DNA of 64,000 bases, from IMG/VR virus record IMGVR_UViG_2703718787_000017; one strand, given 5' to 3'. Position 1 is the stretch's first letter. Every line of letters starts with the position of its first letter. This DNA comes from a virus (lineage: Duplodnaviria; Heunggongvirae; Uroviricota; Caudoviricetes). This document shows, piece by piece, positions 1,692-49,038 of this stretch. The notes under the pieces are model-generated. The model searched no databases and was not told the origin of the DNA. It saw only the letters and a program-made list of their open reading frames with translations. The translations under genes were made by a program, and so were the position numbers.

Positions 1692-1724
1692 TTCACGATA
1701 TTCCATTAATACCATTTCCTGATG

Positions 1725-1749
1725 CCCGGCCATTGTGCCGGGTTTTTTT
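1725..1749 (+). terminator. rho-independent terminator-like hairpin (CCCGGC-cattgt-GCCGGG followed by T7 run)
   Basis: GC stem plus U-run between the 421-aa gene and the giant gene; may act as attenuator. Confidence 0.5.
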
Positions 1750-1760
1750 ATGGAGTCTGT

Positions 1761-4700
1761 ATGGCCTATTCAGAGGAACAGCGTCCTGAGGCGCAACTCG
1801 GTAACCAGAATCGTAACAGCCTGAACATTCAGCAACCCGGCGAAACTGACAGCTATGAAGCATTTTTCTCTGATCCGAATCGCTGGAAGGATAACAGTAC
1901 GTCGTTCAGCCTGGGCGATGTATTGCCAACAATGGGTAAAGGTTTCGCCCAGTCCGTCCGGGGAACAGGGGAAATGGCCCGTGGACTCGGTGATGCGATG
2001 ATTCAGAGCCCGGTAAAAACAGGGGCGCGTATTTTAAATGAGTTCAGCCGTATGGGGCTGCCGGGTGTCGCAACTGTGCAGGATATTTTTGCCGGTGGCA
2101 GCAGGGGGGCTGATGAGGTCATCGATACCCTGCCTGATGGCAAAAACGCGGTTACTGATACTGTCGGTAAAGGTCTGAAGGCAACCGGTAAGGCTGTCAG
2201 TGATGGTGCTGAAGCCACTGATGAATGGCTGACCGGTAAGATGTCGCCGGGTGCAGTTCGTGCGCTGAATACGCCGATGACCGAAGGCTATGATGATTCT
2301 GCGGTCTGGGTGGCGAAGGGTGTAAACCTGATTGGTGCGCTTGTACCTGATATGGTTGCTGGCGGTGTGGCTAAAAAGGTGGGTGATGTCACACTGCGAA
2401 AAATGCTGACCGCCGGGCTGGAGAAAAAATACATCGCGGCAGGGATGCAGCCGGAAAGAGCCACGGCACTGGCAGCAGAAGCTGTCGATAAAAAAATGCC
2501 GGATTTATTCCAGGCGGGCCTGATCACCCATTCCACAGCCAGTGCACAGGGGCAGAGTGCAATGGCGGCAGCAGATGCTGTTCTTAATGCGGATTACTCT
2601 GAGCTGGCGCAGTCACCGAAATTTCAGCAGACGTTTTTGTCCATTGACGCCGACCCGCAGCACGCACAGCTTACTGATCGCCAGAAAATGGATCTGGCAA
2701 AAGAGCGTGTTGCCGATGAGGTGCGCGCGCAGCTGGCAACCGATCCTGAATTGCTGGCTGTGAATGCCATGGCGGCAAAACTGGGTGACGCACAACTGTT
2801 TAATCTGGTGACACGAGGCACAGCGAAGACCGTTAAAAGCGGCATTGTCAGAAATGCCACGGAACAGGGGGCGATTAATGCGGCGCAGGGCGGCTATTCA
2901 CGCTATCAGGAAAACACGGCATTGCGTGAGACCGCCGGAATGGATGTGTCACCGTGGGAGGGCGTGGCTGACGCAACGATCGAAGGTGCAGCCTTTGGTG
3001 CTGCGATGGGGGCTCCATCCGGTGCGGTTGCCGGATATCGTGGCAGACGTCAGGCCGCAGAAGAAGCAGCCATGCGTGATGCTGAAACCGTGCAGCAGGA
3101 CGACGCAGCCCCGCAACCAGAATCTGTTGATCCGGTGGCGCAGCATCGTGAATCCATGCAGGGGATGAATCGCGAGCAGCTTCTGGAGCAGTATGCTGAT
3201 GCGGATATGGCAACAGAGGGGGACGCATCCGCAGCTCATCGCCGGGAAGCTGCCAGCCAGTTGTTGAATGAACTGGACGAACAGGCGAAGCGACAGGCTG
3301 TGATGAATGAGCTGAAGGCGAAGCCGCGTTCTGAACTGCTTGAGGAATACCGCAGACTCAGCCAGAAAGAGGAGCGCACCGAGACTGAAGAACAACAGTT
3401 TCAGGCAATACGAGAAGTCATTCGCCCACAACAGGAAGTGACGCCGGAAGCACAGTCACAGCCTGAAAATGCGGAGGATGGTAACGGGAGCATTTACCCG
3501 ACGGTGCGGTTCCGGGACCCGAATGAAGTCCGCATTGAAATTAACGGGAATGGTGCGTCCAGACCAGCGGAACGCATTGAAAAGGTGCGCCCGGACAACC
3601 GTTATTTCACGGATGAGAAAAGCGCCATGGGGAGTGATGTTTTCCGTAATGCCGCCGCCACCGGCCTGAAACCGTCCGTAGTGAAGAAAGGCGAGACTCA
3701 ATATGCTGTTGAAATGGATAATCCTGCGTTCTCTGAAGATGTGGCAACGGAAACCATTAACACCCTGGCTGACGGAGAGCGTATTGCTGATGCTGACCCG
3801 ATGGAGCAGCCCGCGTTCATGCGTGACCCACGATTCCGTGGTTTCACGGGGGATGATACGGAGGTACAGGCCCGCCTTGCCCGTGGCAACGTGCCGACGG
3901 CAGAGGAGCTTGTACGTTCACAGATGGCTGAAGGTGATGCCGGTCCGACAGCACAGGAGTTAACTGAGCGTCCACGCCTGCCCGCTCCCGGCGATATTCA
4001 TCCCGGACAGGGATATCCGTTACCGGGAGAGGTGGCGCGTACGCCGGATGAGAATCAGGCAGGACGTGGTGGTCGTTTTACCACAACCGGTGAGGTTAAG
4101 GGCCAGAGTTTCCAGAAAGGACAAGCTCTGGCACCGGAAAACGCCGCTGGTCGCCAGGGGGAAACACTCGAGGGTGAAATGGTTCGTCGTGGTCTGCCGT
4201 CACCGGATGCGCAGAACGCGACAGCACCGGTACGTGAAGGGCTACCGGCTCCGGACATTACACACAATGTCCGTATGCCTCAGCCTGATCAGCTTCCCCG
4301 AACTGTTCGTAACTCATTGCCTGAGCTCGCACAGCAGGCAGAAGTACGTCGACAGGCCGGAGGAAATCGTGACATCCCGCAGCCTGAGACAATCGCACCT
4401 GAATCTGAAACAACAGTCGCTACTGACAGGGAAGCTACCGTGCGCGGAGGTGAAGTCAGGGGCAAAAAAATTGAAGACTTTGGTGAAGAAATTAAGGGCG
4501 CGGCAAAACACCGTTATGCACAGCTTGCTGAAACACTGGGTAAAACGCTGGAAGACAGGGATTATGTCACGCAACCGCTGAGCAAACTGTTCCCGAAACC
4601 GGACTACGCAAAACTGGCGAGCGAAGGGGCTGATGCTGACACCCTGGCAATGATAGCGCTGTATCGTAGCGATATTCCGGTGAAGACGAAACACAATACG

Positions 4701-7700
4701 GCAGGCTGGGGGGAGAGCGTAAAAAAAGTACGACACAGTGTATCGGAAATGCTGAACGGAACGGTCAGCGCGAAACGCCTCGCAGAATGGATGGAAGGCA
4801 GAATGCCCTCCCGTTACGCGGACACCTGGCAACTGTTACGCACTCTGCCACCCTCACAGATGGACAAGGCTTCTGCTTATCGGGTGGTATCGGGTGTGTA
4901 TCAGGCGGCAGGAGGGAAGCGTTACGATCCGCCACAGAAACTTTATTCACTGCGCAATAAGGACAATAAGGGGAGTAACCTCTTTTTCTCGGAAAGCAGG
5001 GATGAATTACTGGCAAAGGCGAAAGTCTGGTTTGCAGAGCAGGAGGAAAAATCACAGGCGAAAGGTGATGAAAAAACAGCACCGTCTCCGGATGACAAAA
5101 TCCGCTTTGACGTTTACCGGAATACCCGCAGTGGCGATATTTTTATCGCTTACGGTAAAAACAAAATGCGGGTGAGAGGTGGCTTTAAGTCAGCCAGTGA
5201 TGCGCGTAAGTACATTGATTTACATCGTGATGAGCTTGTTCGTCATGTGAAGGAGATGCGGGAGATTTCGCGTGAGGAGCAGCGCAACGCCACCAACCGC
5301 GACCGTACCGGACCAGAACGCCGCAAGGGGGATGTTTCACCGGAGCAGTTCAGTGATGCGTTTGGTTTTCGTGGTGTGCAGTTTGGTAATTATGTGGAAA
5401 GTCCGCGTCGTCAGGCTGATTTGAACCGGGCTTATGACTCGCTGCATGACCTGGCTGACGTGCTGAATGTACCGACAAAAGCGCTTTCTCTGAACGGTCG
5501 TCTTGGGCTTGCTTTTGGTGCCCGTGGTAAGGGTAAGGCGGCGGCACACTATGAGTCAGGTGAGGTGGCAATCAACCTGACAAAAGGTAACGGACCGGGT
5601 GCGCTGGCGCACGAATGGTTCCATTCTCTGGATAATTATTTTGGTCGTTATGACGTTTCCAGTGACGGGAAAATTACGTCAGGTGGCGACTTTATGACGG
5701 AAGCACAGCGTGTCAGGCGCATATTTAAAGACGGCAGGTATGTTGATGCTGAATATCCGGTACGTCAGGAGGTTTACGACGCTTTTAAAGGTGTGATTCA
5801 GGCCATTAAAAACAGTGACATGCCGCGTCGTTCAGCGCTTCTTGATGAGGTGCGCTCAAAACCGTACTGGTCAACGGATGTTGAAATGGCGGCACGTGCC
5901 TTTGAGCGTTATGTTCAGGATAAGGCGCGTATGGCTGGCGTGGAGAATGATTATCTGGTCAATATCCGTAAGGCACCTGAGCACAACACAGATAACACCT
6001 ACGCTTATCCGACGAATGCGGAACTGGATGGCGGTATTCGTGAGGCATTCGATCACCTGTTCCGCACCCTGAAAACCCGTGAGACGGACAAGGGCGTTGC
6101 GTTTTATTCCCGTAAGGGCATGACCCGCACACCTGAAGGTAATCTCATTTCGGATGTTAACCGTAGTGCGGAAGCCAAAGGCAGCCCGGTCCCGCAGGTT
6201 GAAGCGGTTGCCCGTGGCGTGATGAGCGGCATTAAGGACAGTGACCTGACGGTCCGTGTGGTGAAGTCACAGAAAGAGGCTGAAGCGCTGGCGGGTGAAT
6301 CGTTCGACGGTTACGGCAGGGTGCACGCATTCTATCGTCCGGATAAACGAGAAATTGTCCTGGTGGCGGATAACATCCCTGACGGGCAGACCGTACGCGA
6401 GAAGTTGCGTCACGAGATTATCCACCATGCCATGGAGCATGTTGTCACGCCAGCGGAATATCAGACGATTATCAAAACCGTGCTGAAAACCCGCGACAGT
6501 GATAACGCCACCATCCGTGAAGCCTGGCGTAAGGTTGATGCGTCCTATGGTAAGGAATCACCGGAAGTACAGGCGGGTGAATTTCTGGCACATATGGCGG
6601 AGAAACAGCCGAATAAATTCGTGGCGGCATGGGAGCGTGTTGTTGCCCTGGTCAAAGGGGTACTGCGTCGTACGGGGTTACTGAAGCCGACGGAACTGAA
6701 CGATATCAGACTTGTTCGCGAGACCATCCGTACGTTAGGCCAGCGTGTGCGGGAAGGTTACACGCCGCGTGAGGATGGCGTGGGCGCATCGTCTCAGTAC
6801 TCCCGTAGTGGTAAGCCTGATCCGTTCAAAGTGCCGGAAGGTGAGGGTGAACGTTATCGCGATGACCTTGCCAGAATGATGAAATCTCTGCGTACCACAG
6901 ATTTAACGGTAAACATCGGGCGTACGCCGCCGGTATTGCGTCACCTTGGTGCACCGGATTTGCCGCTGGTTATTTCCCGCGATACTGTGCGGAAGGCCAC
7001 CAATGGTGTGAAACATGTGGTGCCGATGGATGTTATCGAGAGACTACCGGAACTGATGCACGATCCGGATGCAATTTACCGCTCAGCGACAGAAAGAAAT
7101 GCGGTTGTGATGCTGCTTGATGCCGTGGATAAAAATGGTGATCCGGTAGTGTCTGCGGTGCATATGAAGGCAACCCAAAAACTTCTGGAAGTTAACCGTA
7201 TTGCTTCTGTTTACGGAACGGAAAACGGGAAAAAACTGAAGAGTATGGAAACGGCTGGCTTAACATTATACAGGAGAGAAAAACTAAACCCTGATGGTTC
7301 TCTGTACAGAGGGCTCCAATTGCCCAAAGATGAGCACTCCCGTCAGGGTTCTGCGGATAAAATACTCTATCCTGAAGATATTCGCAAGGGGCCGTATTAC
7401 TCCCGTACCAGCAGTCTGACACCGGAAGAGACAATTGCATCGCGTTTTGTGCGCCAGATGCAGGATAAATTCCAGGTGCTGAAAGCTGTTCAGGAGAATA
7501 TCCGTAAAACTGGTGGAAAAATAGACGACAGTAACAACGCTTATATGGCGGAAGAACTCTTCCACGGGAAGGCGGAAAACGACCTGAACGTGATGAAGGA
7601 GCGCTACGTTCAGCCACTGGCTAAATTACTGGCGGACTACAAAATTGCGCAGGCCGATCTGGATGAGTACCTCTACGCCCGTCACGCGCCGGAACGTAAC

Positions 7701-10142
7701 GCGCATATCGCGAAAATCAACCCGAAAATGCCGGACGGCGGTTCGGGGATGACCAACGCGGAGGCGGCGGAAATCATGCAGCGTGTACGTAACAGCGGCA
7801 AACAGGCACAGTATGACCGTCTGGCAGGGATTGTTGACGATATGCTGGCCCGTCGCCGTGAGCTTATCCGTGAGGCAGGACTGGAAGAGAGCGGCGTGGT
7901 GGATGCCTGGCAGAAAGCCTACCGTTACTACGTTCCCCTGAAAGGGCAGGATGTTGACGGTGTGGTGTCACTGCCACGTACAGGCAAGGGATTCACCATC
8001 GGCGGGCGTGAAAGTAAGCAGGCCATGGGGCGCGCATCCCGCGCACAGTCTCCTTCCACTCAGGCGATACAGGATTTGAGCGAATCACTGATCCGCAATC
8101 GCAAAAATGAAGTGGGTAACGCCTTCCTGAAACTGGTACAGGATAATCCCGACAAGGATTACTGGCAGGTATTCACCGATGACAGACCGGATACCATGCG
8201 GACGATTGCAGAGCGCAAGGACAAGGAAACTGGTGAAACCATTCGCGAAGTTGTCGAACGCCCTGTACCGATGGCAATGATGGCAGACCGGTACTTCACC
8301 ACCAAAAAGAACGGCAAAACGTACTACATCAAACTCCATGATCCGCGCCTGATGCGTGCGATGAAGAATATGGGACCGGAAACCAGTAACGCCGTAATCC
8401 GCACGCTGGGGAAAGTTAACCGCTTCCTGGCAACGGTGAACACGTCGTATAACCCGGAATTCCTGGTCAGTAACTTCATCCGTGACGTACAGACGGCGGT
8501 GATGAACCTGAAGGCGGAGCAGGGAAGGAGCGACGGCAAACTGAAAGGGCTGGATAACTTATCCGCACTGGCTGTGGTGAAAGACAGTCGGTCTGCCATG
8601 TCTGCCGTATACGCCAGTCTGCGTGGTAAAACCCTCACGGGCAACGGTGCGCAGTGGCAGAAGGTGTGGAAAGAGTTTGTTGAGGACGGAGGTAAAACCG
8701 GCTGGTTTAACATGGGTGACCTTGAAGGCCAGCAGAAGGAAATGGATCGCCTTGTATCGCTGGCGAAGGGAGGATGGAAAGGCCAGAGTATCGGTGCATG
8801 GAATTCGTTCCTTAACCTTGTCGAGGATGCCAACGGGGCGGTTGAAAACGCTCTGCGTCTTTCTGCCTATAAACACGCCCGTGATGCCGGTTTGTCACGC
8901 CAGCAGGCGGCGTCTCTTGCCAAAAACATGACGGTGAACTTTAACCGTCGTGGTGAGCAGGGGGCGCTGATGAACTCGCTGTACATGTTCGCCAACGCCA
9001 GTATTCAGGGAACGGCAAATCTGGTGAGAACGCTCGGACATCTTAATGGTGAGGGACCTTTACTGGAGCGCCTTCGCTGGAAGAATCTGAATGTTCCGCA
9101 GAAAATCGCGCTTGCCGCTGTGGGAGCGGGTTATCTGCTTGGCTCGCTTAACCGCAGCGTGGCGGGTGAGGATGATGACGGGGTTAACTGGTATGACAAA
9201 GTACCGTCTCATGTGAAAGAGCGTAACCTCGTCATTATGAAATCGGTGTTCGGGGGCAAGGCCGGAGAGTACTGGAGTATTCCTCTGCCTTACGGGTACA
9301 ACGTTTTCTTCCTGCTTGGTCACACAGCCGAAGGGGTGGCAGCGGGCGACCTGACCGCTTCACGTGCTGCCGGTAATGTTGTTGGTGGTGTGCTTGGGGC
9401 ATTCAGTCCTGTGGGCAGTGAAACGTCGGAAACACTGTCCGGGGCATTGCTGAAAAATGCAGCGCCGACCATTCTGCGTCCGTTTGCGAACCTTGCCATG
9501 AATGAAAACTTCATGGGGGCGCAGATTTACCAGGAGAACATGCCGTTTGGTACACCAAAACCTGACAGCCAGCTGGGAAGACGTTCAACGCCAGAAGCGT
9601 ACAAGGCGTTTGCATCCTGGCTGAATGCGTTCTCAGGTGGCAGCCAGTACCGTCCCGGCGCGGTGGATATCACACCGGAATCGCTGAAATTCTGGATTGA
9701 CTATATCTCCGGAGGGACAGGGCGCTTCATTTCCAAAACCACGGATGCGGCGGTGAAATCGCTGAATGGTATTGATATACCGGAACAGCAGGTGCCCTTC
9801 CTGGGGAAAATTTCGGGGGAGGTGATGCCGTATGCAGACCAGCAGAAGATGTACGACCGGATGACAGAGATTGCGCAGTATCACGCAGAGCTGAAGAGTC
9901 TGACCGGTGCAGAAAGAACGGCGTTCATTGACGAGAACAACGGAAAATTGTCGATGAACGGGCTTATGCAGGATACCCGGAAGAGACTGAAGGATTTGCG
10001 TAAACAGCGTGATGCCATTTATGCCGACAGTTCTCTCAGTCTGGCGCAGCAGGCGGCGATAGTGAAATCGGTAGAGCGGGATATGAAGGTTGCCGTGGAT
10101 CGCTTTAACCGCGAGTACAACAAAAAAGTGGGAGTGGATTAA
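1761..10142 (+). CDS. giant multidomain 'polyvalent-type' protein (about 2793 aa) with HExxH zincin-like motif (HEWFH at 5610-5624), second H-E-x-x-H-H motif near 6411, Pro/Glu-rich low-complexity linker and Gly/Ala-rich N- and C-terminal segments
   Basis: Single uninterrupted 8.4-kb frame; start ATG at 1761 preceded by GGAG; HExxH motif read directly; domain architecture otherwise unresolved without profile search. Confidence 0.8.
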   Translation: MAYSEEQRPEAQLGNQNRNSLNIQQPGETDSYEAFFSDPNRWKDNSTSFSLGDVLPTMGKGFAQSVRGTGEMARGLGDAMIQSPVKTGARILNEFSRMGLPGVATVQDIFAGGSRGADEVIDTLPDGKNAVTDTVGKGLKATGKAVSDGAEATDEWLTGKMSPGAVRALNTPMTEGYDDSAVWVAKGVNLIGALVPDMVAGGVAKKVGDVTLRKMLTAGLEKKYIAAGMQPERATALAAEAVDKKMPDLFQAGLITHSTASAQGQSAMAAADAVLNADYSELAQSPKFQQTFLSIDADPQHAQLTDRQKMDLAKERVADEVRAQLATDPELLAVNAMAAKLGDAQLFNLVTRGTAKTVKSGIVRNATEQGAINAAQGGYSRYQENTALRETAGMDVSPWEGVADATIEGAAFGAAMGAPSGAVAGYRGRRQAAEEAAMRDAETVQQDDAAPQPESVDPVAQHRESMQGMNREQLLEQYADADMATEGDASAAHRREAASQLLNELDEQAKRQAVMNELKAKPRSELLEEYRRLSQKEERTETEEQQFQAIREVIRPQQEVTPEAQSQPENAEDGNGSIYPTVRFRDPNEVRIEINGNGASRPAERIEKVRPDNRYFTDEKSAMGSDVFRNAAATGLKPSVVKKGETQYAVEMDNPAFSEDVATETINTLADGERIADADPMEQPAFMRDPRFRGFTGDDTEVQARLARGNVPTAEELVRSQMAEGDAGPTAQELTERPRLPAPGDIHPGQGYPLPGEVARTPDENQAGRGGRFTTTGEVKGQSFQKGQALAPENAAGRQGETLEGEMVRRGLPSPDAQNATAPVREGLPAPDITHNVRMPQPDQLPRTVRNSLPELAQQAEVRRQAGGNRDIPQPETIAPESETTVATDREATVRGGEVRGKKIEDFGEEIKGAAKHRYAQLAETLGKTLEDRDYVTQPLSKLFPKPDYAKLASEGADADTLAMIALYRSDIPVKTKHNTAGWGESVKKVRHSVSEMLNGTVSAKRLAEWMEGRMPSRYADTWQLLRTLPPSQMDKASAYRVVSGVYQAAGGKRYDPPQKLYSLRNKDNKGSNLFFSESRDELLAKAKVWFAEQEEKSQAKGDEKTAPSPDDKIRFDVYRNTRSGDIFIAYGKNKMRVRGGFKSASDARKYIDLHRDELVRHVKEMREISREEQRNATNRDRTGPERRKGDVSPEQFSDAFGFRGVQFGNYVESPRRQADLNRAYDSLHDLADVLNVPTKALSLNGRLGLAFGARGKGKAAAHYESGEVAINLTKGNGPGALAHEWFHSLDNYFGRYDVSSDGKITSGGDFMTEAQRVRRIFKDGRYVDAEYPVRQEVYDAFKGVIQAIKNSDMPRRSALLDEVRSKPYWSTDVEMAARAFERYVQDKARMAGVENDYLVNIRKAPEHNTDNTYAYPTNAELDGGIREAFDHLFRTLKTRETDKGVAFYSRKGMTRTPEGNLISDVNRSAEAKGSPVPQVEAVARGVMSGIKDSDLTVRVVKSQKEAEALAGESFDGYGRVHAFYRPDKREIVLVADNIPDGQTVREKLRHEIIHHAMEHVVTPAEYQTIIKTVLKTRDSDNATIREAWRKVDASYGKESPEVQAGEFLAHMAEKQPNKFVAAWERVVALVKGVLRRTGLLKPTELNDIRLVRETIRTLGQRVREGYTPREDGVGASSQYSRSGKPDPFKVPEGEGERYRDDLARMMKSLRTTDLTVNIGRTPPVLRHLGAPDLPLVISRDTVRKATNGVKHVVPMDVIERLPELMHDPDAIYRSATERNAVVMLLDAVDKNGDPVVSAVHMKATQKLLEVNRIASVYGTENGKKLKSMETAGLTLYRREKLNPDGSLYRGLQLPKDEHSRQGSADKILYPEDIRKGPYYSRTSSLTPEETIASRFVRQMQDKFQVLKAVQENIRKTGGKIDDSNNAYMAEELFHGKAENDLNVMKERYVQPLAKLLADYKIAQADLDEYLYARHAPERNAHIAKINPKMPDGGSGMTNAEAAEIMQRVRNSGKQAQYDRLAGIVDDMLARRRELIREAGLEESGVVDAWQKAYRYYVPLKGQDVDGVVSLPRTGKGFTIGGRESKQAMGRASRAQSPSTQAIQDLSESLIRNRKNEVGNAFLKLVQDNPDKDYWQVFTDDRPDTMRTIAERKDKETGETIREVVERPVPMAMMADRYFTTKKNGKTYYIKLHDPRLMRAMKNMGPETSNAVIRTLGKVNRFLATVNTSYNPEFLVSNFIRDVQTAVMNLKAEQGRSDGKLKGLDNLSALAVVKDSRSAMSAVYASLRGKTLTGNGAQWQKVWKEFVEDGGKTGWFNMGDLEGQQKEMDRLVSLAKGGWKGQSIGAWNSFLNLVEDANGAVENALRLSAYKHARDAGLSRQQAASLAKNMTVNFNRRGEQGALMNSLYMFANASIQGTANLVRTLGHLNGEGPLLERLRWKNLNVPQKIALAAVGAGYLLGSLNRSVAGEDDDGVNWYDKVPSHVKERNLVIMKSVFGGKAGEYWSIPLPYGYNVFFLLGHTAEGVAAGDLTASRAAGNVVGGVLGAFSPVGSETSETLSGALLKNAAPTILRPFANLAMNENFMGAQIYQENMPFGTPKPDSQLGRRSTPEAYKAFASWLNAFSGGSQYRPGAVDITPESLKFWIDYISGGTGRFISKTTDAAVKSLNGIDIPEQQVPFLGKISGEVMPYADQQKMYDRMTEIAQYHAELKSLTGAERTAFIDENNGKLSMNGLMQDTRKRLKDLRKQRDAIYADSSLSLAQQAAIVKSVERDMKVAVDRFNREYNKKVGVD

Positions 10143-11983: not shown

Positions 11984-12934
11984 TCACTCTCCTTTGATGC
12001 GAATGCCAGCAAGCCAGTTTCTTATGCCGATATATTCAGCGTTCCGGAAACCGCTTTTTACATATATAAATGGCAAGCGAAGATTGTGACCATTGACTGC
12101 CAGGTAGTCTTTACAACCCTGTTCGGTGAAACAGCAGGTAACGAATTCATCAATATCTTTCACAGCAACGCGCCGCCATTTTTCTGGTGGCTCTCGAAAG
12201 TTTTCATGAAGTAGCTCGAGACGACGACTATGGCGTTTATTGGCTTCATTGCCATCTTCGTCAACCCAGACAATCCGGTCATGGTCATAATCAGCATCAA
12301 CAACGATTTCGCGCTTTTGATACACACAAAACATGGGATCTGACGTTATTCGATTGTCCTGTGTTCGAATATTTTCACCGATGATGCCAAACGAATCTGG
12401 TGCAGATTTTGTCTGCATCTCTTCGATACGTTCAGCCATCGCAGCACACTCTTCAAAGTTGCTTAATGCTTTTCGCTCCCATTCGGCGCATTGTTTTTCC
12501 AGTTCTGCTATGCGCTTACTTCCATCCGCGATTACTCCCTCGTAATATTCACGCTGCTCGTTGAGTTTTGATTTTGCTGTTTCAAGCTCAACGCGCAGCT
12601 TCCCTACCGTAAGCGCAATATCCTCGTTCTCCTGGTCGCGGCGTTTGATGTATTGCTGGTTTCTTTCCCGTTCATCCAGCAGTGCCAGCACGGTAGCCGG
12701 ATTGGCTGCGGCGATGAATTCAGCATTGGCCTGCTGTTCCATTTGGAAATCTTCATCGAAACCGCTTTCAGGATGTGCTCCTTCAATTCTGCAAATGGGA
12801 ATATATCCAGCAGCCTCGCGATGAATTAGTGCATCATCACCATCAAATCGGTTCTCTCCATATTCGAGCGACCACTCACCACGCGTTGCTTTTTCTGCCT
12901 TTTCACGCAGTACCTGATAGTTAATCTCGCTCAT
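11984..12934 (-). CDS. Ea22-like lambdoid early protein (coiled-coil; N-terminus MSEINYQ…ATRGEWS)
   Basis: N-terminal sequence resembles lambda Ea22-family proteins from memory; GGAG upstream of ATG at 12934. Confidence 0.65.
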   Translation of the reverse strand: MSEINYQVLREKAEKATRGEWSLEYGENRFDGDDALIHREAAGYIPICRIEGAHPESGFDEDFQMEQQANAEFIAAANPATVLALLDERERNQQYIKRRDQENEDIALTVGKLRVELETAKSKLNEQREYYEGVIADGSKRIAELEKQCAEWERKALSNFEECAAMAERIEEMQTKSAPDSFGIIGENIRTQDNRITSDPMFCVYQKREIVVDADYDHDRIVWVDEDGNEANKRHSRRLELLHENFREPPEKWRRVAVKDIDEFVTCCFTEQGCKDYLAVNGHNLRLPFIYVKSGFRNAEYIGIRNWLAGIRIKGE

Positions 12935-13205
12935 TTTTCTCTTCGCTCCGGTATACAAGAATTACAACGTCACCTCTGCTAATTACGCGAGCTGGATCTC
13001 CTGGCTCCATGCTGTCAATCCCGAAGGCTTCGGAAAACGCATTCATTGCCTTCTGGCGTTGATCCTGCTTACGGCATTTATTCCATTTTTTCAGTAACAA
13101 CAGCGATAGCCACCGCCCGGCGCAGAACATAATGTAAAAATAACCAAGAAGCGCCAGACCTGTGTTGAGGGCCGTATCGATCGTTATAGTGGTGTCTATG
13201 CTCAC
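12921..13205 (-). CDS. small hypothetical protein with one hydrophobic helix
   Basis: 94-aa ORF overlapping neighbours by a few nt in an operon-like arrangement. Confidence 0.45.
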   Translation of the reverse strand: MSIDTTITIDTALNTGLALLGYFYIMFCAGRWLSLLLLKKWNKCRKQDQRQKAMNAFSEAFGIDSMEPGDPARVISRGDVVILVYRSEEKNERD

Positions 13206-13423
13206 TTCACACCTCTCTGTTTGTTGATAAGTTCAATATCCTGCTGGCAACTGGCGCAAGTTCGGCATCCGCGAACAGCCTGGCGTCGCCGCTCATCTAT
13301 CGGATCGCCACACTCGCAACAATGAGTAGCAGATGGGGCATTACTTTCGGATTTGTATTTTTGCAGGGAGAGATTGCGCTGCAATTCTTCGATTTCAGCG
13401 GCATTGTCGATGATATCTGCCAT
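13202..13423 (-). CDS. TraR/DksA-family C4 zinc-finger protein
   Basis: 73 aa with CxxC…CxxC (CCECG…CRTCASC) pattern typical of phage TraR-like proteins. Confidence 0.7.
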   Translation of the reverse strand: MADIIDNAAEIEELQRNLSLQKYKSESNAPSATHCCECGDPIDERRRQAVRGCRTCASCQQDIELINKQRGVK

Positions 13424-13470
13424 TTTCCTTTCCTTCAGGCATGAAAAAAGGAGCCGAAGCTCCTTTGGTA

Positions 13471-14094
13471 TCAGAATTCAAATTGTCTTGCTCTTAGTTG
13501 CGCTAGCATACTTCTGGCCCTATGCACCATATAGTTGGCGGGATCAAGTTTTGCTGCTTCGCGGAGCAATGTGTCGCGAGTCCGGTTGGTTATATGACGA
13601 GTCTCGTAGGCCAGATCAAACAGTTTCCCGTAGTAATCAGAATTCAGTTCTCTCATGACGGGGTATAGCTGCTTACTGAGTTGTTGTGCTTTTTCCATCC
13701 AGAGTTGAACGTAGCAGAGCAGGATGATGTCTTCTGCTGTGAATTGCTGCTCAGTTTGTACTGGCTGAATGTTGCGAAGTTTCTTTTCGCACTCGATGAA
13801 GTATCGGCGTATCTGGCGGCCTTTTTCGTTACGTTCAACCATCGCAAGCTCTTTGGCTGTGTCGAGGGTGAGGTGGTAATCCTTGCGGCGGCGGCCTGGA
13901 GTTTTCGCCAAATTTGGCGAAAATAGAATGTAGTCTAAATTTTCTACGAATCCATACTCGTTTAGCTTGGCCCGTATCCAGTTAGAAAAATCTTTACCTA
14001 CCTCTAAAAATCCATGCAAATCACGCGCGTTCACCAGAAGCGTAGGTTCATTTGAGATTGTACCTTCAAACACAGGGATGAGTTGAGTGGTCAT
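13471..14094 (-). CDS. phage antirepressor (AntA-type N-terminal domain plus C-terminal domain)
   Basis: MTTQLIPVF…ARDLH…YHLTLDTAKE motif set; strong RBS AAAGGAGG; upstream in-frame extension rejected. Confidence 0.8.
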   Translation of the reverse strand: MTTQLIPVFEGTISNEPTLLVNARDLHGFLEVGKDFSNWIRAKLNEYGFVENLDYILFSPNLAKTPGRRRKDYHLTLDTAKELAMVERNEKGRQIRRYFIECEKKLRNIQPVQTEQQFTAEDIILLCYVQLWMEKAQQLSKQLYPVMRELNSDYYGKLFDLAYETRHITNRTRDTLLREAAKLDPANYMVHRARSMLAQLRARQFEF

Positions 14095-14343
14095 GATGAC
14101 CTCCTTTGGCTTTTTTCGAGAAATGCCACCACAAAATGTGGTGCCGGGAGGCTCGAAACGGCCCAAAAGATACCGCGGACTTATTCCCCTTGCGGGTGTT
14201 GTATTCGTCGCCCTCCCGACATTGATCGGGGATGTGACCGCACACTGTGCTATCACTGAATAACAGGCATAAAAAATCCAACACTGACGGGGTTGGTTTA
14301 ATCCGCTTTTGGGAGGTTTTCGAGGCCTCGGCGCGGAGTATAG

Positions 14344-14631
14344 TCAGTATTGGACGCAGTCGTCAACCATCGCCGTTTCTTTGGCTGTGTCGAGGGTGAG
14401 GTGGTAATCCTTGCGGTTGTGACCGCCTCTACCAGATGTTTGCTTTCCCAAATTGGAAAGCAAAATATAGTCTTGATTTTCAATGAATTCGTATTCTGAA
14501 ATGCGATTTGTAATCCATGCCGCAAACACCTTTTTCACGCCTAAAAAAGCATGCAGATCGCGGGCATTGCAGAGTAGGGCTGTTTCGTTGTCGATAGTGC
14601 CGTTGAATACGGGGATGAGTTGATTAGCCAT
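14344..14631 (-). CDS. truncated antirepressor paralog (AntA-type N-domain only, 95 aa)
   Basis: MANQLIPVF…YHLTLDTAKE; shares a near-identical 40-nt stretch with the downstream ant gene; RBS AGGAG. Confidence 0.65.
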   Translation of the reverse strand: MANQLIPVFNGTIDNETALLCNARDLHAFLGVKKVFAAWITNRISEYEFIENQDYILLSNLGKQTSGRGGHNRKDYHLTLDTAKETAMVDDCVQY

Positions 14632-14957
14632 AATTATGACTCCTGACGTTTTAGTATTGACTGCCACCTTAGTGGGGTGGCGGGCTTCAACTACCGCGTC
14701 AGACGGCGGAGCGTATTTCCCGAAAGGGTATTGTATTAGGCTCTCTCGACCCGCCATTGATATGGCGATACCTGTAAACAGGCATAAAAAAGCCGCAAAG
14801 CTATCGGGTGCGGTTGACCGCTGACGTTGTAGTGCAGTCAGTATGCGATAGCTCTGGCAGATTTGTCAAATCGTGCAGTAACATCCTTTTCTTCCTTGCC
14901 ATTTCTCAATGATGACAAAGGGTGGATTCGGATTGGTATTGGGACAAAAGTGAGACA

Positions 14958-14992
14958 CACAAAGCTTTGCATCGGCTTACAAAGCTTTGCAT
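14958..14992. promoter_or_regulatory. two copies of ACAAAGCTTTGCAT (each containing the perfect 10-bp palindrome CAAAGCTTTG) spaced 20 bp centre to centre; putative operator pair upstream of the antirepressor genes
   Basis: Exact repeat and palindrome read from sequence; two-helical-turn spacing. Confidence 0.35.
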
Positions 14993-15036
14993 GTTTTTCA
15001 ATGTTGGGACGTGTGAGCGCAGAAATGACGGGCTAT

Positions 15037-15150
15037 CTAATTGATTTTAAACGATACGTAACCAACTTTAAAATCTTTGCACGCCAGTTCGCAGGTTTTA
15101 CAGCCAGTACAGCGGCTGGAATCGATAAAAAATCCATATTGTGTGGTCAT
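15037..15150 (-). pseudogene. ynfG: ynfG 5' fragment: first ~28 codons (MTTQYGFFIDSSRCTGCKTCELACKD…) then out-of-family sequence and stop
   Basis: N-terminal 4Fe-4S ferredoxin-type motif CxxCxxC matches YnfG start; RBS GGAG 10 nt after ynfF stop; ORF ends after 37 codons instead of about 205. Confidence 0.7.
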
Positions 15151-15160
15151 GGGCTACTCC

Positions 15161-17587
15161 TTAAACCTTTTCGATCTGGACAAGATTGCTGTGCGACGGG
15201 TTTCCCTTTGCCAGCGGTGAAGGGCGGTGAGAGGTCAGAATATTGATACTGCCGCCGTGATCGACCCGGTCACCAAACATATCCGCTTTAAGCCACGCAC
15301 CTTGCCCGATGGCGGTAACGCCAGGCAGAATACGCGGAGTCACTTTTGCGGCAATCAGCATTTCTCCATTATTGTTAAATACCCGCACGGTATCGCCATG
15401 ACGGATACCGCGTGCCTGAGCATCAATGGGGTTGATCCACACCTCTTGTGGGCAGGCCTGCTGTAACACATCAATATTGCCGTAGCTGGAGTGGGTACGC
15501 GCTTTGTAGTGGAAGCCCGTTAACTGCAGTGGATAGGTTTTCCGCAGGGGATCGTCCCAGCCATCAAAACCTGGGGTATACGCAGGAAGGGGATGAATAA
15601 TTTCATCTTTTTTCAATTCCCAGGTATCTGCAATCTTCGCCAGTCGTTCAGAATAAATTTCGATTTTCCCCGAAGGTGTTTTCAACGGGTTTGCCTGTGG
15701 ATCTTCACGGAATGCGCGGAAAGCGACGTAGTGTTCTTCCGGGCATTTTTTCTTAAAGATCCCGGTCGTTTTCATCTCCTCGTAGTCGGGCATCTCAGGG
15801 TTACGTTCCTTCGTTTTCGCATGGAGATATTTGATCCATTCATGCTGACTGCGACCTTCAGTAAAGGTTTGATAAACGTCTGGTCCTAAGCGTTTGGCGA
15901 CTTCACTCAGCATCCAGTAGATGGGTTTGCGTTCAAATTTTGCTGAGGTTGCGGGTTGGGCGAGGATCACATAGCCCATATTCCCTGCAGATTCATGAGA
16001 GATAAGGTCTTCTTGCTCTGTTGGCATCAGGTCGGGCAACAGGATATCGCAATACTTAGCCGAGGCCGTCATGAAGTGGTCAATGCCAACAATCATCTCG
16101 CACTTGCTGTCATCCTGAAGCACCTCATGGGTGTGATTGATGTCGCCATGTTGATTGATCAATGTGTTACTGGCGTAGCACCATAAAAACTTGATGGGGA
16201 CATCCAGTTTTTCTTTTCCACGAACACCATCACGGGTCGCGGTCATTTCCGTACCATGGTCGATGGCATCTGTCCATGTAAAGACGGAAATCTGCGTTTT
16301 AACAGGATTCTCAAGCATCGGGAACCATTCTACCCCCAGATCCCAGCTACCTTCGCGTACACCTGAGTTGCCGCCGTTTATGCCGACGTTACCGGTGAGA
16401 ACGGAAAGCATGGCAATAGCGCGGGACGTTTGCTCGCCGTTGGAATGTCGTTGTGGCCCCCAACCCTGACAAATATAAGCAGGTTTTGCTGAACCGATCT
16501 CTCGTGCCAACTGGATAATTTTTTCTGCCGGGATGCTGGTGATTTTTGCTGCCCATTCCGGCGTTTTAGCTATGCCGTCAGGCCCTTCGCCCAGAATATA
16601 GGCTTTATAATGCGCGTTACGTGGTGCGTTGGCGGGCAGCGTTTTTTCATCGTAACCAACACAATATTTGTCGAGAAATGGCTGATCGACCATGTTTTCA
16701 GTAATCAGTACCCAGGCAATCGCACAGGCCAGTGCGCCATCGGTGCCAGGGCGAATGGGCAGCCATTCATCTTCACGCCCGGCAGCAGTGTCGTTATAAC
16801 ATGGATCGATGACGATCATGCGTGCGTTTGAACGTTCGCGGGCTTGCTCGACGTAGTAAGTGACACCACCGCCGCTCATCCGCGTTTCTGCCGGGTTATT
16901 TCCGAACATAACGACCAGTTTCGTATTGGCGATATCATCCGGGCTGTTGCCATCATTGGCACCGAACATATAACTCATTGCGGCACTGATCTGTGCGGTA
17001 CTGTAGCTGCCATAGCGACTGAGAAAACCACCGCAAGAGTTCATCAGACGGTACGGGACGTTTGAGTTGGTGATGTTTCCGCCATCTACGCCTGTTCCGT
17101 ACAGGACATGTACAGCCTCATTGCCGTAATCTTTCAGGATCCGCCGAAGATTATCACTGATGGTATCCAGGGCTTCGTCCCAACTTATCCGTTCAAATTT
17201 ACCTTCACCGCGCTTGCCGACGCGCTTCATGGGATATTTCAACCTATCAGGATGATTCATCCGTCGGCGGATAGAGCGCCCGCGTAAACACGCTCGAACC
17301 TGATGGTTACCGTAGACGTCGTCACCTGTCGTATCAGACTCCACCCAGTACACGGTGTCATCTTTCACATGCAAACGTAACAGACAGCGGCTCCCGCAGT
17401 TAACGGTGCAGGAACTCCAGACCGCTTTCTCTTCTACCGGAGCCTCTGCCGCCCGGACCATTTGGGAAAATGGCAGAGTGAAAGCACTGCTTGCCAGCGC
17501 AAGACTGCCAAGTGCGGAGGTTTTCATCAGACTTCTACGGCTGATTTCAGCCTTCATGAGCGCCTCTGTGGTATGGATTTTCATCAT
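15161..17587 (-). CDS. ynfF: DMSO-reductase-family molybdoenzyme catalytic subunit YnfF, with twin-arginine signal (SRRSLMK)
   Basis: 808-aa ORF; Tat motif; CTVNCGSRC Fe-S motif; paralogous to the split ynfE. Confidence 0.95.
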   Translation of the reverse strand: MMKIHTTEALMKAEISRRSLMKTSALGSLALASSAFTLPFSQMVRAAEAPVEEKAVWSSCTVNCGSRCLLRLHVKDDTVYWVESDTTGDDVYGNHQVRACLRGRSIRRRMNHPDRLKYPMKRVGKRGEGKFERISWDEALDTISDNLRRILKDYGNEAVHVLYGTGVDGGNITNSNVPYRLMNSCGGFLSRYGSYSTAQISAAMSYMFGANDGNSPDDIANTKLVVMFGNNPAETRMSGGGVTYYVEQARERSNARMIVIDPCYNDTAAGREDEWLPIRPGTDGALACAIAWVLITENMVDQPFLDKYCVGYDEKTLPANAPRNAHYKAYILGEGPDGIAKTPEWAAKITSIPAEKIIQLAREIGSAKPAYICQGWGPQRHSNGEQTSRAIAMLSVLTGNVGINGGNSGVREGSWDLGVEWFPMLENPVKTQISVFTWTDAIDHGTEMTATRDGVRGKEKLDVPIKFLWCYASNTLINQHGDINHTHEVLQDDSKCEMIVGIDHFMTASAKYCDILLPDLMPTEQEDLISHESAGNMGYVILAQPATSAKFERKPIYWMLSEVAKRLGPDVYQTFTEGRSQHEWIKYLHAKTKERNPEMPDYEEMKTTGIFKKKCPEEHYVAFRAFREDPQANPLKTPSGKIEIYSERLAKIADTWELKKDEIIHPLPAYTPGFDGWDDPLRKTYPLQLTGFHYKARTHSSYGNIDVLQQACPQEVWINPIDAQARGIRHGDTVRVFNNNGEMLIAAKVTPRILPGVTAIGQGAWLKADMFGDRVDHGGSINILTSHRPSPLAKGNPSHSNLVQIEKV

Positions 17588-36783: not shown

Positions 36784-36836
36784 CGGCGGCAGAGCAGTCA
36801 CGGAGTAAAACTGATACCGCCAAACGTCACCAGAAA
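36784..36836 (-). ncRNA. dicF: DicF small RNA (ftsZ-targeting Hfq-dependent sRNA)
   Basis: Minus-strand sequence TTTCTGGTGACGTTTGGCGGTATCAGTTTTACTCCGTGACTGCTCTGCCGCC matches remembered DicF; 175 nt upstream of dicB as in K-12. Confidence 0.8.
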
Positions 36837-41596: not shown

Positions 41597-42208
41597 TTTT
41601 ATATTATGCCAACGGAGCGTAGCAGTGTTTCTATATATAGTACGCCTACCTTAATTTTCAAATAATCATGATTAATGAGCAGGTCATCAGTGCAAGCAAT
41701 GACCTGCTCATCTTGTTGAAATTAGAGGAAATCTTGCAGCCATGATATGGCTTAAAATAACGTTTGATTATTTTACCTGCTGTTTGTCCCTGGTTTAAAG
41801 TCGGTTGTCTGATTTGATTACGCGCAACTGACGCTTACGTATTGAAGTAACGAGCACGAAGACACATATTTATCAGTGCCTGTATACGTCAAGAGCAGGA
41901 GATTTATGTGCTGGTTCTCAAATGCACGCTGGCTATTGTGGCTGTAATGGCAATTTATTGTCTTGTTATTGTTCTTATGGATCACCTTTCTGATTGATTT
42001 CATATTGGCGAGGTAACGGTAGTTAAGTAGAATGGCTGCGGGTGCTTGAGGCTATCTGCCTCGGGCATGAACACCAACGGCAGATAGAGAAAAGCCCCAG
42101 TTAACATTACGCGTCCTGCAAGACGCTTAACATTAATCTGAGGCCAATTTCATGCTAGACACATGTAGGTTAGCCTCTTACGTGCCGAAAGGCAAGGAGA
42201 AGCAGGCT

Positions 42209-42364
42209 ATGAAGCAGCAAAAGGCGATGTTAATCGCCCTGATCGTCATCTGTTTAACCGTCATAGTGACGGCACTGGTAACGAGGAAAGACCTCTGCGA
42301 GGTACGAATCCGAACCGGCCAGACGGAGGTCGCTGTCTTCACAGCTTACGAACCTGAGGAGTAA
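42209..42364 (+). CDS. hokD: Hok-family type I toxin HokD (RelF)
   Basis: 51 aa MKQQKAMLIALIVICLTVIVTALVTRKDLCEVRIRTGQTEVAVFTAYEPEE. Confidence 0.85.
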   Translation: MKQQKAMLIALIVICLTVIVTALVTRKDLCEVRIRTGQTEVAVFTAYEPEE

Positions 42365-45127: not shown

Positions 45128-45669
45128 GCTTTAAATGGGGCAATAGAGATATTGAATCTCATCCCGGGATAAACATTGGGAGTTGAAGGTCCACGCGAAC
45201 CATTTATCCGGCAAAATTCCACGCGTAATCCTGTGGTAATTTCTTCTGCATCTCGAAGATTGAGAGCTGAAACGTGAAGCTGGGCATCGATACGCCATCG
45301 GATGGGAATATAAGACCTTTGCTGCTTTTGTAGTCAAAGTTTTTGACAATTCCTGTCATTTTAGGGGACAGAAAAACTCCTTAATACTGATAACCTGGTG
45401 CACCATACACACGTTCCTGGAGAAAACTACTTTGTTGATAGGGTTGAAGGTGTCTGGATGTCTAAAATAAACATTGCTTCATATGTTCAACTATGAGTTA
45501 ATGACTGCGTCGGTTTGAAGAACAGACGATATACGAAGTAGTTTACTAAAGCAGTTCTCATTTCAGGTGTTATTCACTTATTCCTTCTTTGAGTCTCTCC
45601 AATTAAGTACGAAGTCGTTTCTGTTATGCAAACCATTTATGCCGAAAGGCTCAAGTTAAGGAATGTAGA

Positions 45670-45885
45670 ATGTCAAATAAAATGACTGGTTTAGTAAAAT
45701 GGTTTAACGCTGATAAAGGTTTCGGCTTTATTTCTCCTGTTGATGGTAGTAAAGATGTGTTTGTGCATTTTTCTGCGATTCAGAATGATAATTATCGAAC
45801 CTTATTTGAAGGTCAAAAGGTTACCTTCTCTATAGAGAGTGGTGCTAAAGGTCCTGCAGCAGTAAATGTCATCATTACTGATTAA
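45670..45885 (+). CDS. cspB: cold-shock protein CspB-like
   Basis: [38 protein letters not shown]… CSD with RNP motifs; long AT-rich 5' leader. Confidence 0.9.
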
Positions 45886-46166
45886 AATTCATCGCTCGTC
45901 TGTATACGATAACGAAGAAGGCTGATGCCTGAGTAGAGATACGGACAGAGTAGTGAATATTGGATTTCTTTAATAAAAATTAAGGAGGTCCAATACATGA
46001 AACAATGGCCAGCATATTTGGCAAAATCTTAATCAGGAAAAGTATGCTAACCATTGTGGTGAAGTGCAGGTTTGCTGCATGAATAGTTTTACAGCAGAAG
46101 CTAACTGCTGGCATGGCAAAACAAAGTGCGTAAGTGGATGACTCCCACAAAAAGCACCACAATCTC

Positions 46167-48193: not shown

Positions 48194-48554
48194 GGTAATA
48201 TTAAATCGGAACATTTACATCGCGGAATGTAAAATTTAAATAAAAAGGACTCTTCCATGAGCCAAAATTCCTGAAATCTTAAGGGTAAGATAAAAGGTCT
48301 TAATCAGAATGACACGTTTTATTAATAAATAAAGCTATTCTTTCATTGCTGTGTTTTTCTTTACAAAAGTAATCCTTGCTATGGGTGGTTAATCATGCGT
48401 TAATGGTGTTCTGGTTTGTTACAAATTTATCTGAAGCAGTCATTGTTATAATTTTATTATTTGTACCTCTTGAGATTTCCTTGTTGGTTTTTCTCTCTGA
48501 TATTTTTTTCGGACCATTCTGCCCAAGGGCTAATTTCTTCAAAAGGTAATAATT

Positions 48555-48767
48555 ATGTCTAACAAAATGACTGGTTTAGTGAAATGGTTTAACCCTGAAA
48601 AAGGTTTTGGTTTCATCACGCCGAAAGATGGCAGCAAAGATGTGTTTGTCCATTTCTCAGCAATTCAGAGCAACGATTTCAAAACATTAACTGAGAATCA
48701 GGAAGTTGAATTTGGTATTGAGAACGGACCTAAAGGTCCTGCCGCTGTTCATGTAGTGGCGCTTTGA
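48555..48767 (+). CDS. cspI: cold-shock protein CspI-like
   Basis: [38 protein letters not shown]…. Confidence 0.9.
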
Positions 48768-49038
48768 GGTAGACAATATTACAAACCATATTCACTTTAG
48801 ATGCCCGTGTTGTCATGGTTCCCAGTATAGAACATCATCTTTTGATGTTTCTGACATGAATCCTTTCGGGGCAAAATGTATCTTTTGTAAATCAATGATG
48901 ATTACATTTGATAATATTTCACAATACTTAAATGCCAGCCGTCTGTCGTTGGATTTAAAAAAGTGAAAATGAAGGCTCCTTCGGGAGCTTTTTTGCTTGG
49001 TGTCTATTCGATGGATACTCACATACTACGGTAACATC

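Follow-up and report, generated by a model that had tools for sequence, protein, structure and literature searches.

In the window analysed here, a 64,000-nucleotide (nt) stretch recorded in IMG/VR as IMGVR_UViG_2703718787_000017, two antirepressor genes of the AntA family lie side by side on the minus strand: a long gene (13471-14094) and, upstream of it, a short gene (14344-14631) that encodes an N-terminal domain only. Our analysis suggests that these genes probably belong to two self-contained cassettes of the type found in the immI region of phage P1, each gated by its own antisense RNA with a different specificity, and that the upstream cassette is likely to be an old deletion derivative; this reading leans on sequence comparison and on the analogy with P1. 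We refer to the unit carrying the long gene as cassette 1 and to the unit carrying the short gene, which comes first when the minus strand is read, as cassette 2. Along this strand, each would consist of a sigma-70 promoter, a decoy element with sites termed a1 and b1, a weak intrinsic terminator, a small RNA of about 85 nt belonging to the sRNA-Xcc1 family (Rfam RF02221), and an AntA-family gene.

Two sRNA-Xcc1 RNAs and their candidate targets

A match was assigned to RF02221 when it was full-length and its covariance-model score was at least 53 bits (the gathering score), as was the case for both RNAs at this locus. RNA 1, a C4-like structured RNA (14135-14220, minus strand; cmscan 74.5 bits, E 6e-13), lies ahead of the long gene, and RNA 2, similarly C4-like (14671-14756, minus strand; cmscan match at 14671-14755, 53.0 bits, E 8e-8), lies ahead of the short gene. 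RNA 1 carries an antisense loop, UAUCUUUUGGG (14162-14172), a linker, UUUCGAG (14152-14158), an outer stem formed by GUCGGGAGG and CCUCCCGGC, and the 3' tail ACCA. Together, its loop and linker are complementary to two sites in front of the long gene (14100-14120, minus strand): b2, GCCAAAGGA (14102-14110), which overlaps the Shine-Dalgarno (SD) sequence AAGGAGG, and a2, CUCGAAA (14114-14120), a few bases upstream. Both segments have a second pair of complements, CCCAAAAG and CUCGAAAAC, some 90-100 nt ahead of RNA 1. The putative decoy element at this place (14306-14329, minus strand) comprises a hairpin, GAGG-CCUCGAAAA-CCUC, whose loop holds a1, and then b1, CCCAAAAG.

RNA 2 has a different antisense loop, CUGACG (14697-14702), a linker, UAGUUGAA (14686-14693), and an outer stem formed by UGGCGGGU and GCCCGCCA. 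Its loop matches the motif ACGUCAG twice: at a2/b2-like candidate target sites read from the sequence (14640-14655, minus strand), where the motif overlaps the SD GGAG of the short gene, and again upstream, where ACUAC and ACGUCAG form putative a1/b1-like decoy sites (14821-14834, minus strand; likewise read from the sequence) complementary to the linker and hairpin-2 loop of RNA 2. The C-run in the 3' flank of RNA 2 (14678-14680) varies between relatives, reading GCCCGCCACCCCACU here, and GCCCGCCCCCCCCACU and GCCCGCCCCCCCACU in the related loci L002 and L003; both of the latter variants remove the A of the ACC tail.

Predicted duplex energies (RNAduplex) follow the same partition: with the RNA kept constant as well as with the target site kept constant, the cognate duplex was always more stable than the non-cognate one. 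RNA 1 gave -19.4 kcal/mol with its own SD site versus -8.2 with that of cassette 2, and -18.7 with its own upstream site versus -12.0 with that of cassette 2. The corresponding values for RNA 2 were -14.5 versus -11.5 kcal/mol at the SD sites of cassettes 2 and 1, and -23.6 versus -12.8 kcal/mol at the upstream sites. Since the loops differ and each has matching targets, the two cassettes would be controlled independently of one another.

Both RNAs are preceded by further elements in a common order. Upstream of the cassette 1 decoy lies a promoter-like site, TTGACG-18 nt-TATACT (14337-14366, minus strand), recovered in a promoter scan, which overlaps the 3' end of the short ORF (open reading frame), and whose position and spacing relative to the a1 hairpin match those of the element TTGAC[GT]-17-TAnnnT in intact cassettes of other phages. 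Cassette 2 begins with TTGACA-18 nt-CATACT (14840-14869, minus strand; 10/12 matches in the promoter scan), and its promoter-like sequence, GATTTGACAAATC...CATACTGAC, also heads the first cassette in phages 933W and P14437. Between decoy and RNA, each cassette has a weak terminator-like hairpin followed by a U-run and AUGCCUG and containing CAGGCATAAAAAA: CCAAC..GUUGG in cassette 1 (14264-14296, minus strand) and CCGCA..UGCGG in cassette 2 (14779-14813, minus strand), the latter collinear with the hairpin and T-run upstream of P1 c4. These terminators were identified by eye and by conservation, the terminator scan having missed them because their loops exceed 8 nt or the stem takes up part of the T-run.

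The segment CAGGCATAAAAAA (14264-14276 and 14779-14791) is the one that the first-pass annotation, a reading of the sequence made before this analysis, had seen in both leaders. It is indeed present in both, and the likeness of the leaders extends well beyond it, with a mean column identity of 75% over about 350 nt that include the structured RNA element of each. A third copy, CAGGCATGAAAAA (13436-13448), lies just past the long gene as part of a terminator (13436-13466, minus strand) with the structure GGAGC-UUCG-GCUCC, U6 and then CAUGCCUG; no copies of this type arose in 100 shuffles. A further apparent copy inside the short gene, CACGCCTAAAAAAGC, came up in the repeat search and was rejected as a chance match.

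Two AntA-family genes at the attR end of a Stx-type prophage

Both genes were recovered as minus-strand ORFs, and they share an AntA N-domain, as the earlier reading had proposed. Each matches Pfam AntA (PF08346; gathering score 27 bits), the long gene at 92.2 bits (E 3e-26) and the short one at 86.5 bits (E 2e-24), and their products are identical at 59 of 91 residues (65%; BLASTP, E 2e-36). The long gene codes for 207 amino acids (aa) and alone carries a P22_AR_C domain (32.3 bits); it is named 'phage antirepressor Ant' in RefSeq and is the positional counterpart of the 933W Ant gene. The 95-aa product of the short gene consists of the N-domain only, and PGAP lists it as a pseudogene without a C-terminus. 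The description of the locus as two tandem antirepressor modules, the upstream one coding for the AntA N-domain alone, was correct, and pairwise alignment showed a similarity that covers the whole N-domain rather than just a short stretch.

Within this region, a near-identical stretch of about 40 nt noted earlier proved to be an exact run of 39 nt inside a 54-nt direct repeat that is 93% identical between the long gene (13835-13888, minus strand; direct-repeat search) and the short gene (14363-14416, minus strand). The block encodes ..RKDYHLTLDTAKE.AMV in the short gene and is conserved at the DNA level in 5/5 aligned ant alleles. Outside it, the two N-domains share 53.5% nucleotide identity, and an exact run of 39 nt would be expected by chance with a probability of about 1e-8.

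The window is E. coli chromosome, and the region to the left of a ynfG remnant is the end of a prophage inserted in ynfG. Positions 13400-14900 match the right end of Shigella phage POCJ13 at 99.9% identity, and many phages that convert their hosts to production of Shiga toxin (Stx), of both Stx1 and Stx2 types, are related. At the equivalent position in 933W, adjoining the attR core, there is one Ant gene (ST933Wp80), which forms a single intact cassette of the same design and is followed by a DksA/TraR-like gene and ea22; the window likewise has genes for TraR/DksA (13202-13423), DUF4752 and Ead/Ea22 downstream. The locus is thus the attR end of a Stx-type prophage with two adjacent antirepressor cassettes.

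Loops and ribosome-binding sites covary across the RNA family

To place the two RNAs in a wider sample, viral contigs were scanned for the invariant hairpin-1 core. This yielded 120 loci, which after calling of the outer stem and removal of identical RNAs gave 88 non-identical RNAs with 80 different hairpin-2 loops. When each loop was compared with the 130 nt downstream of its own RNA, the mean longest exact complement was 6.54 nt, versus 4.47 nt for permuted partners (z = 21.8; 0/5000 permutations); the same test gave z = 20.8 for loops against their own upstream regions, and z = 13.3 and 15.6 for linkers against their own downstream and upstream regions, respectively. Where the loop target was at least 6 nt long, it ended 7-11 nt before an ATG in 56/65 cases and abutted an SD-like motif in 55/65. 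An AUG stands at the 5' edge of the RNA in 57/88 instances, RCC follows the 3' arm in 60/88, and a T-run lies within 120 nt upstream of the RNA in 74/88.

The outer stem and the stems of hairpins 1 and 2 all covary. RNAalifold, applied to a MAFFT alignment of the 88 RNAs, recovered only the two hairpin stems, with covariation, and left the outer stem out of register, so that covariation in the latter was taken from explicit stem calls. Hairpin 1 itself (14181-14205 and 14716-14740 in the window), AAUACAAyACCC-N4-GGGrAAU, is nearly invariant in the 88 instances, and the rest of the RNA varies freely.

A Pfam census of the first downstream ORFs (n=81) identified KilA-N in 11, Bro-N in 11, AntA in 10, P22_AR_N in 9, Rha in 8 and ORF6N in 7, a total of 56 (about 70%). 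Phage antirepressor-like proteins typically carry such N-terminal modules in shuffled combinations. Furthermore, intact cassettes of the cassette 1 type on unrelated contigs repeat the arrangement seen here: TTGAC[GT]-17-TAnnnT is followed by the hairpin GAGG-CGUCGAAA-CCUC, whose loop carries a1, then by a variable b1, GCGG, the terminator CCAAC..GUUGG-U6 and AUGCCUG. A relative, E. coli FORC_069, has three cassettes, with a BRO gene, Ant and a truncated AntA gene; RF02221 RNAs precede the BRO and Ant genes, and the RNA ahead of the truncated gene was found by motif. In this genome (L002:3544-4307), the BRO-family cassette is inserted between the Ant and TraR/DksA genes, with its own promoter directly after the Ant stop codon. 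Its RF02221 RNA does not have the AAUACAA core used in the motif scan, implying that the RNA family is broader than the 88 instances sampled.

A GC-rich sRNA-Xcc1 subgroup on seven of the viral contigs (L004, L009, L031, L039, L043, L114 and L118) is organized differently. In this subgroup, a promoter-like site, TTGACG-17-TATTCT, lies 3' of the RNA and is followed by an ORF of about 85 aa without an antirepressor domain, and the complement of the loop lies just before the ATG with no obvious SD. The subgroup may correspond to the tandem sXF units of about 380 bp reported in Xylella.

Comparison with P1 immI and other antirepressor systems

The immI region of phages P1 and P7 is under c4 antisense control, as reportedly described by Citron & Schuster in 1990, and the loop sequence of the RNA sets immunity specificity; the hypervariable loops of RF02221, with their matched targets, parallel this arrangement. 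A summary of c4 control is given in PMC12197685. The P1 annotation (NC_005856) lists promoters, a1, b1, a hairpin with a T-run, c4 RNA, a2, and b2 at the SD of icd. The window cassettes have the same order of parts, with b2 of P1 overlying the SD of the ant operon's first gene. P1 C4, of the ~77-88-nt class, and the sRNA-Xcc1 consensus also share a layout of AUGG, outer stem, hairpin 1, hairpin 2, single-stranded linker, 3' arm and CCACC. In P1, the segment b' is the hairpin-2 loop and a' is the linker, and the same two segments provide the complementarity in the window RNAs. Three features of the P1 type are thus found here: the RNA architecture with a CCA-like 3' flank, two segments complementary to sites at the ribosome-binding site, and an upstream a1/b1 copy with a hairpin and T-run.

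In addition, P1 and cassette 2 align in collinear order over stretches that include CCGATA..TTGCGG.TTTTT.TG.C.GT and the 5'-edge AUGG of the RNA, which identifies CAGGCATAAAAAA as the T-run and flanks of the weak terminator between decoy sites and RNA. The segment belongs to a conserved regulatory unit of weak terminator and C4-like RNA and is no scar of a duplication.

There are also clear differences. The window RNAs have a shorter outer stem than P1 C4 and a long, nearly invariant hairpin 1 (AAUACAAyACCC..GGGrAAU); the candidate target is the SD of ant itself, the antirepressor is of the AntA type rather than P1 Ant1/2, and the cassettes occur in tandem arrays. No C1-type operator was identified at the window cassettes. 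Formal membership of the C4 (RF01695, clan CL00128), c4-a1b1 and isrK families was considered and rejected, as the window gave no match to them at E <= 1, with RF01394 and RF03163 among the models covered.

Several observations weigh against the P1-like reading. RF01695 gave no match at E <= 1 in 12000-16000, and P1 c4 gave no RF02221 match at E <= 10, so that the likeness to C4 is one of architecture, not family membership. An icd-like coupling ORF was found in neither cassette between RNA and ant, which starts about 40 nt past the RNA. RNA 2 scores exactly at the gathering threshold of RF02221 (53.0 bits), its loop-target match is only 6 nt long, and its discrimination between cognate and non-cognate SD sites is modest (-14.5 versus -11.5 kcal/mol). 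Single-sequence folding z-scores were weak (-1.1 to -1.7) and were left out of the evidence, and the permutation tests retain some relatedness among loci despite deduplication of the loops. The function proposed for both RNAs draws on complementarity and on the parallel with P1.

Other systems resemble the window cassettes in part. Hershko-Shalev et al. are said to have described, in 2016, Gifsy-1 IsrK with orf45 and anrP, where IsrK activates translation via a coupling ORF. IsrK (RF01394) is a short terminated RNA from the start of an antirepressor-like operon, and the decoy-plus-terminator element would be its equivalent in the window cassettes, in which there is, however, no coupling ORF; the a1b1-plus-terminator region of P1 itself has a weak match to Rfam isrK. 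In P22 immI (mnt, arc, ant), the sar antisense RNA, transcribed from the opposite strand, acts at the ant ribosome-binding site. The likeness lies in a small antisense RNA at this site that limits the antirepressor and in the P22_AR_C domain that P22 shares with the long protein, whereas the window RNAs lie on the same strand as ant and upstream of it; Arc or Mnt genes were not seen in the window ORF list. A LexA box, CTGT-N8-ACAG, was found with at most one mismatch nowhere in 13400-14900, and thus at neither promoter, which sets the locus apart from the LexA-controlled antirepressor class (Gifsy GfoA/GfhA, 186 Tum type).

sRNA-Xcc1 was reportedly studied by Chen et al. in 2011. The family takes its name from an integron-cassette sRNA of Xanthomonas campestris (RF02221; PMC2996969), to which both window RNAs are full-length matches at or above the gathering score. 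Published accounts present the family as trans-acting, controlled by virulence regulators and of unknown target, with members more recently reported as vesicle-carried sRNAs in Xylella; for the window members, in contrast, complementarity points to local candidate targets. An sRNA-Xcc1 upstream of an ORF6N gene has been noted in the APSE literature without explanation. In the literature searched, we found no paper linking sRNA-Xcc1 to c4-type control or to antirepressor-like genes, nor any account of the family-wide covariation between loop and SD or of the nature of the truncation; the genes and the Rfam matches were already known.

How the RNAs may act

Together, these comparisons suggest that each RNA would pair with a2 and b2 and block translation of its own ant gene by covering the SD, keeping the antirepressor switched off in the lysogen, with specificity determined by the loop sequence. 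The RNA could do so in cis, as part of the leader, or in trans after excision, probably by RNase P as for C4; we infer processing, translational repression and trans action alike from the parallel with P1. Provided that the ant gene of phage phi24B is an orthologue of the long gene in the window, a gated accessory inducer of this kind fits what has been reported for that phage: its lysogens expressed ant weakly, and deleting the gene lowered the late-promoter activity seen upon induction to about 30% (Fogg et al. 2011, PMC3064807). Neither the leader RNA nor the truncated upstream cassette is described in that work.

Because the leader is predicted to bury the SD when folded through the AUG, a contribution in cis is plausible. 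For both leaders, the fold of minimum free energy (-41.9 and -37.5 kcal/mol) has the loop and linker base-paired to a2/b2, with the SD sequestered, and in most loci the RNA and its target lie on one transcript. Thus, the element could in principle act exclusively in cis, as a leader that toggles between the sRNA-Xcc1 fold and the SD-hiding fold with no free RNA acting in trans. We consider this rather unlikely, because the a1/b1 decoy copy, the RCC(A) tail and the AUG|G at the 5' flank all parallel the processed, trans-acting C4 RNA. In addition, the Xanthomonas type member is a discrete 88-nt RNA, as established by Northern blot and RACE (PMC2996969), and the promoter-like site between RNA and target in the GC-rich subgroup implies separate transcripts. 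The two modes of action are not mutually exclusive.

The short gene is an old and widespread deletion derivative

Full-length proteins of the AntA type have a ERNEKGRQIRRYFIECEK segment after the Pfam domain and a C-terminal domain. Both are present in the long gene and absent from the short one. Phage HEMP4 carries the same N-domain allele as the short gene in full-length form (218 aa), continuing with ..AMVERNEKGRQVRRYFIECEKRL into a different C-terminal domain. The short ORF departs from the family consensus immediately after GCGATGG; from there on it reads TTGACGACTGCGTCCAATACTGA, the -35 and spacer of the cassette 1 promoter-like site. As a result, its last seven codons (DDCVQY and stop) come from cassette 1 promoter DNA, and the protein ends ..AMV plus six residues. 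The gene was therefore cut short by a deletion that ended at the -35 of the next cassette. This deletion removed the gene past codon ~88 and joined ..GCGATGG to the -35 TTGACG, probably via the microhomology GGTTGA; promoter and RNA were left intact, together with an N-domain ORF of 95 aa. Cassette 2 therefore appears to keep everything needed to make its RNA.

The truncation is old and widespread rather than the mark of a fresh duplicate. The exact junction was found in 17 viral contigs and, counting the window and annotated genomes and phages, in 22 instances, in all of which the ORF is open. These instances comprise nine protein alleles and at least four leader RNAs, each matched to targets of its own; the P14437/TL-2011c type (CUUCAAAG) is one of these RNAs. 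In the protein database, at least 18 clusters (90% identity) of 92-95-aa proteins have this tail, one of them found on 866 contigs, and the tail has diverged to DDCIQH and DVHIQH, the latter in Salmonella. In P0059, a fusion to the same promoter DNA has arisen independently, in another frame. The Stx1a-converting phage Stx1_112808 (L125:1501-1860) carries the same N-domain allele cut after DTAKELA, with unrelated sequence beyond; here the C-terminus was lost independently a second time, within the conserved block.

A protein that stays open in every instance of the junction and in so many clusters, that has acquired diverged tails, that retains its SD and regulatory sites, and for which an independent fusion to the same promoter DNA exists might be functional in its own right and kept by selection, for instance as a dominant-negative partner of the complete Ant protein or a decoy for a DNA or protein target. 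We regard this as doubtful. A tail read from promoter DNA is what a by-product of deletion would have, and the ERNEKGRQIRRYFIECEK segment that has been lost shows strong conservation across the family; an AlphaFold model of the long protein (pLDDT 71.6) gives it as a confident helix (residues 90-109). Furthermore, the frames could simply have stayed open because recombination with intact genes replaced the N-domain time and again, the alleles being mosaic. These short-gene alleles probably diverged before the truncation. A PDB sequence search returned no relevant structural homologue of the AntA protein, and a Foldseek search of the AlphaFold model against the PDB gave none at E <= 0.001.

Finally, the first-pass annotation had taken the pair for a tandem duplication whose shorter copy may be a decoy, a dominant modulator or a decaying duplicate, and a recent local duplication, in which one copy lost its C-terminal domain and is decaying, is very improbable: the units are adjacent, in the same orientation and with the same order of parts, they share the 39-nt run, and PGAP calls the short gene a pseudogene, yet their DNA identity outside the conserved block is only 53.5%, their leader RNAs are of different sub-types with different loops, specificities and matched targets, RNA 2 is nearer to RNAs on other contigs (L049, L116) than to RNA 1, the identical truncated junction is joined to at least nine N-domain alleles and at least four leader RNAs in other phages, some relatives have a third cassette with a BRO gene, and none of the at least 18 clusters shows a frameshift or premature stop. 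The suggested pattern is thus opposite to one in which units within a phage are each other's closest relatives. That the short gene derives from a full-length one held good, as the HEMP4 orthologue attests; that it is decaying did not, since no decay was seen. Because the junction is common to many N-domain alleles and leader RNAs, the two-cassette array looks, from these sequences, to have been assembled and reshuffled by recombination between cassettes, with the 54-nt block behaving as the apparent right-hand recombination boundary of an exchangeable segment of promoter, RNA and N-domain.

Implications for prophage induction

Antirepressors decide whether a Shiga-toxin prophage is silent or induced, and induction drives toxin release. 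If loop-specific antisense gating operates as proposed, Stx phages carry a second, P1-like layer of immunity whose specificity can be read from sequence, and this could explain cross-induction or protection between co-resident and superinfecting phages. As a tentative suggestion, to which we attach no great confidence, the truncated cassette may persist for its RNA, an orphan immI repressor that would silence the antirepressor of incoming relatives and so shield the Stx prophage from induction by superinfection; equally tentatively, sRNA-Xcc1 as a whole may be a very large, hypervariable set of immunity-specificity RNAs guarding genes of the KilA-N, Bro-N, AntA, Rha, ORF6N and P22AR types in phages, islands and integron cassettes. 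An Rfam family for which targets have been looked for across whole genomes, and even in plant hosts, gains a concrete local candidate function, and what gene-finders record as an 'AntA pseudogene' becomes a stable, widespread cassette remnant with an intact predicted regulatory RNA.

Other features of the window

Beyond cassette 2 lies an inverted repeat with a 17-bp stem (ACATGCAAAGCTTTGT..GCAAAGCTTTGTGTGT; 14955-14994), between the cassette 2 promoter and the ynfG remnant and near the junction of prophage and host; it was scored as terminator-like and also gave a spurious mir-19 match. The ynfG remnant itself (15037-15150, minus strand) is the 5' part of the gene for a 4Fe-4S subunit, cut by insertion of the prophage, and ynfF (15161-17587, minus strand) and ynfE beyond it are intact. 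On the other side, a plus-strand ORF of 2806 aa (1722-10142), annotated in RefSeq as an LPD38 domain-containing (polyvalent) protein, converges on the minus-strand block of ant, traR, ea22 and DUF551 genes. Further along the window there is a second prophage region, defective and Qin-like, and Rfam matches at 36784-36835, 42040-42214, 45509-45932 and 48410-48794 correspond to DicF, sok (a hok/sok-type antitoxin RNA) and two cspA thermoregulator leaders.

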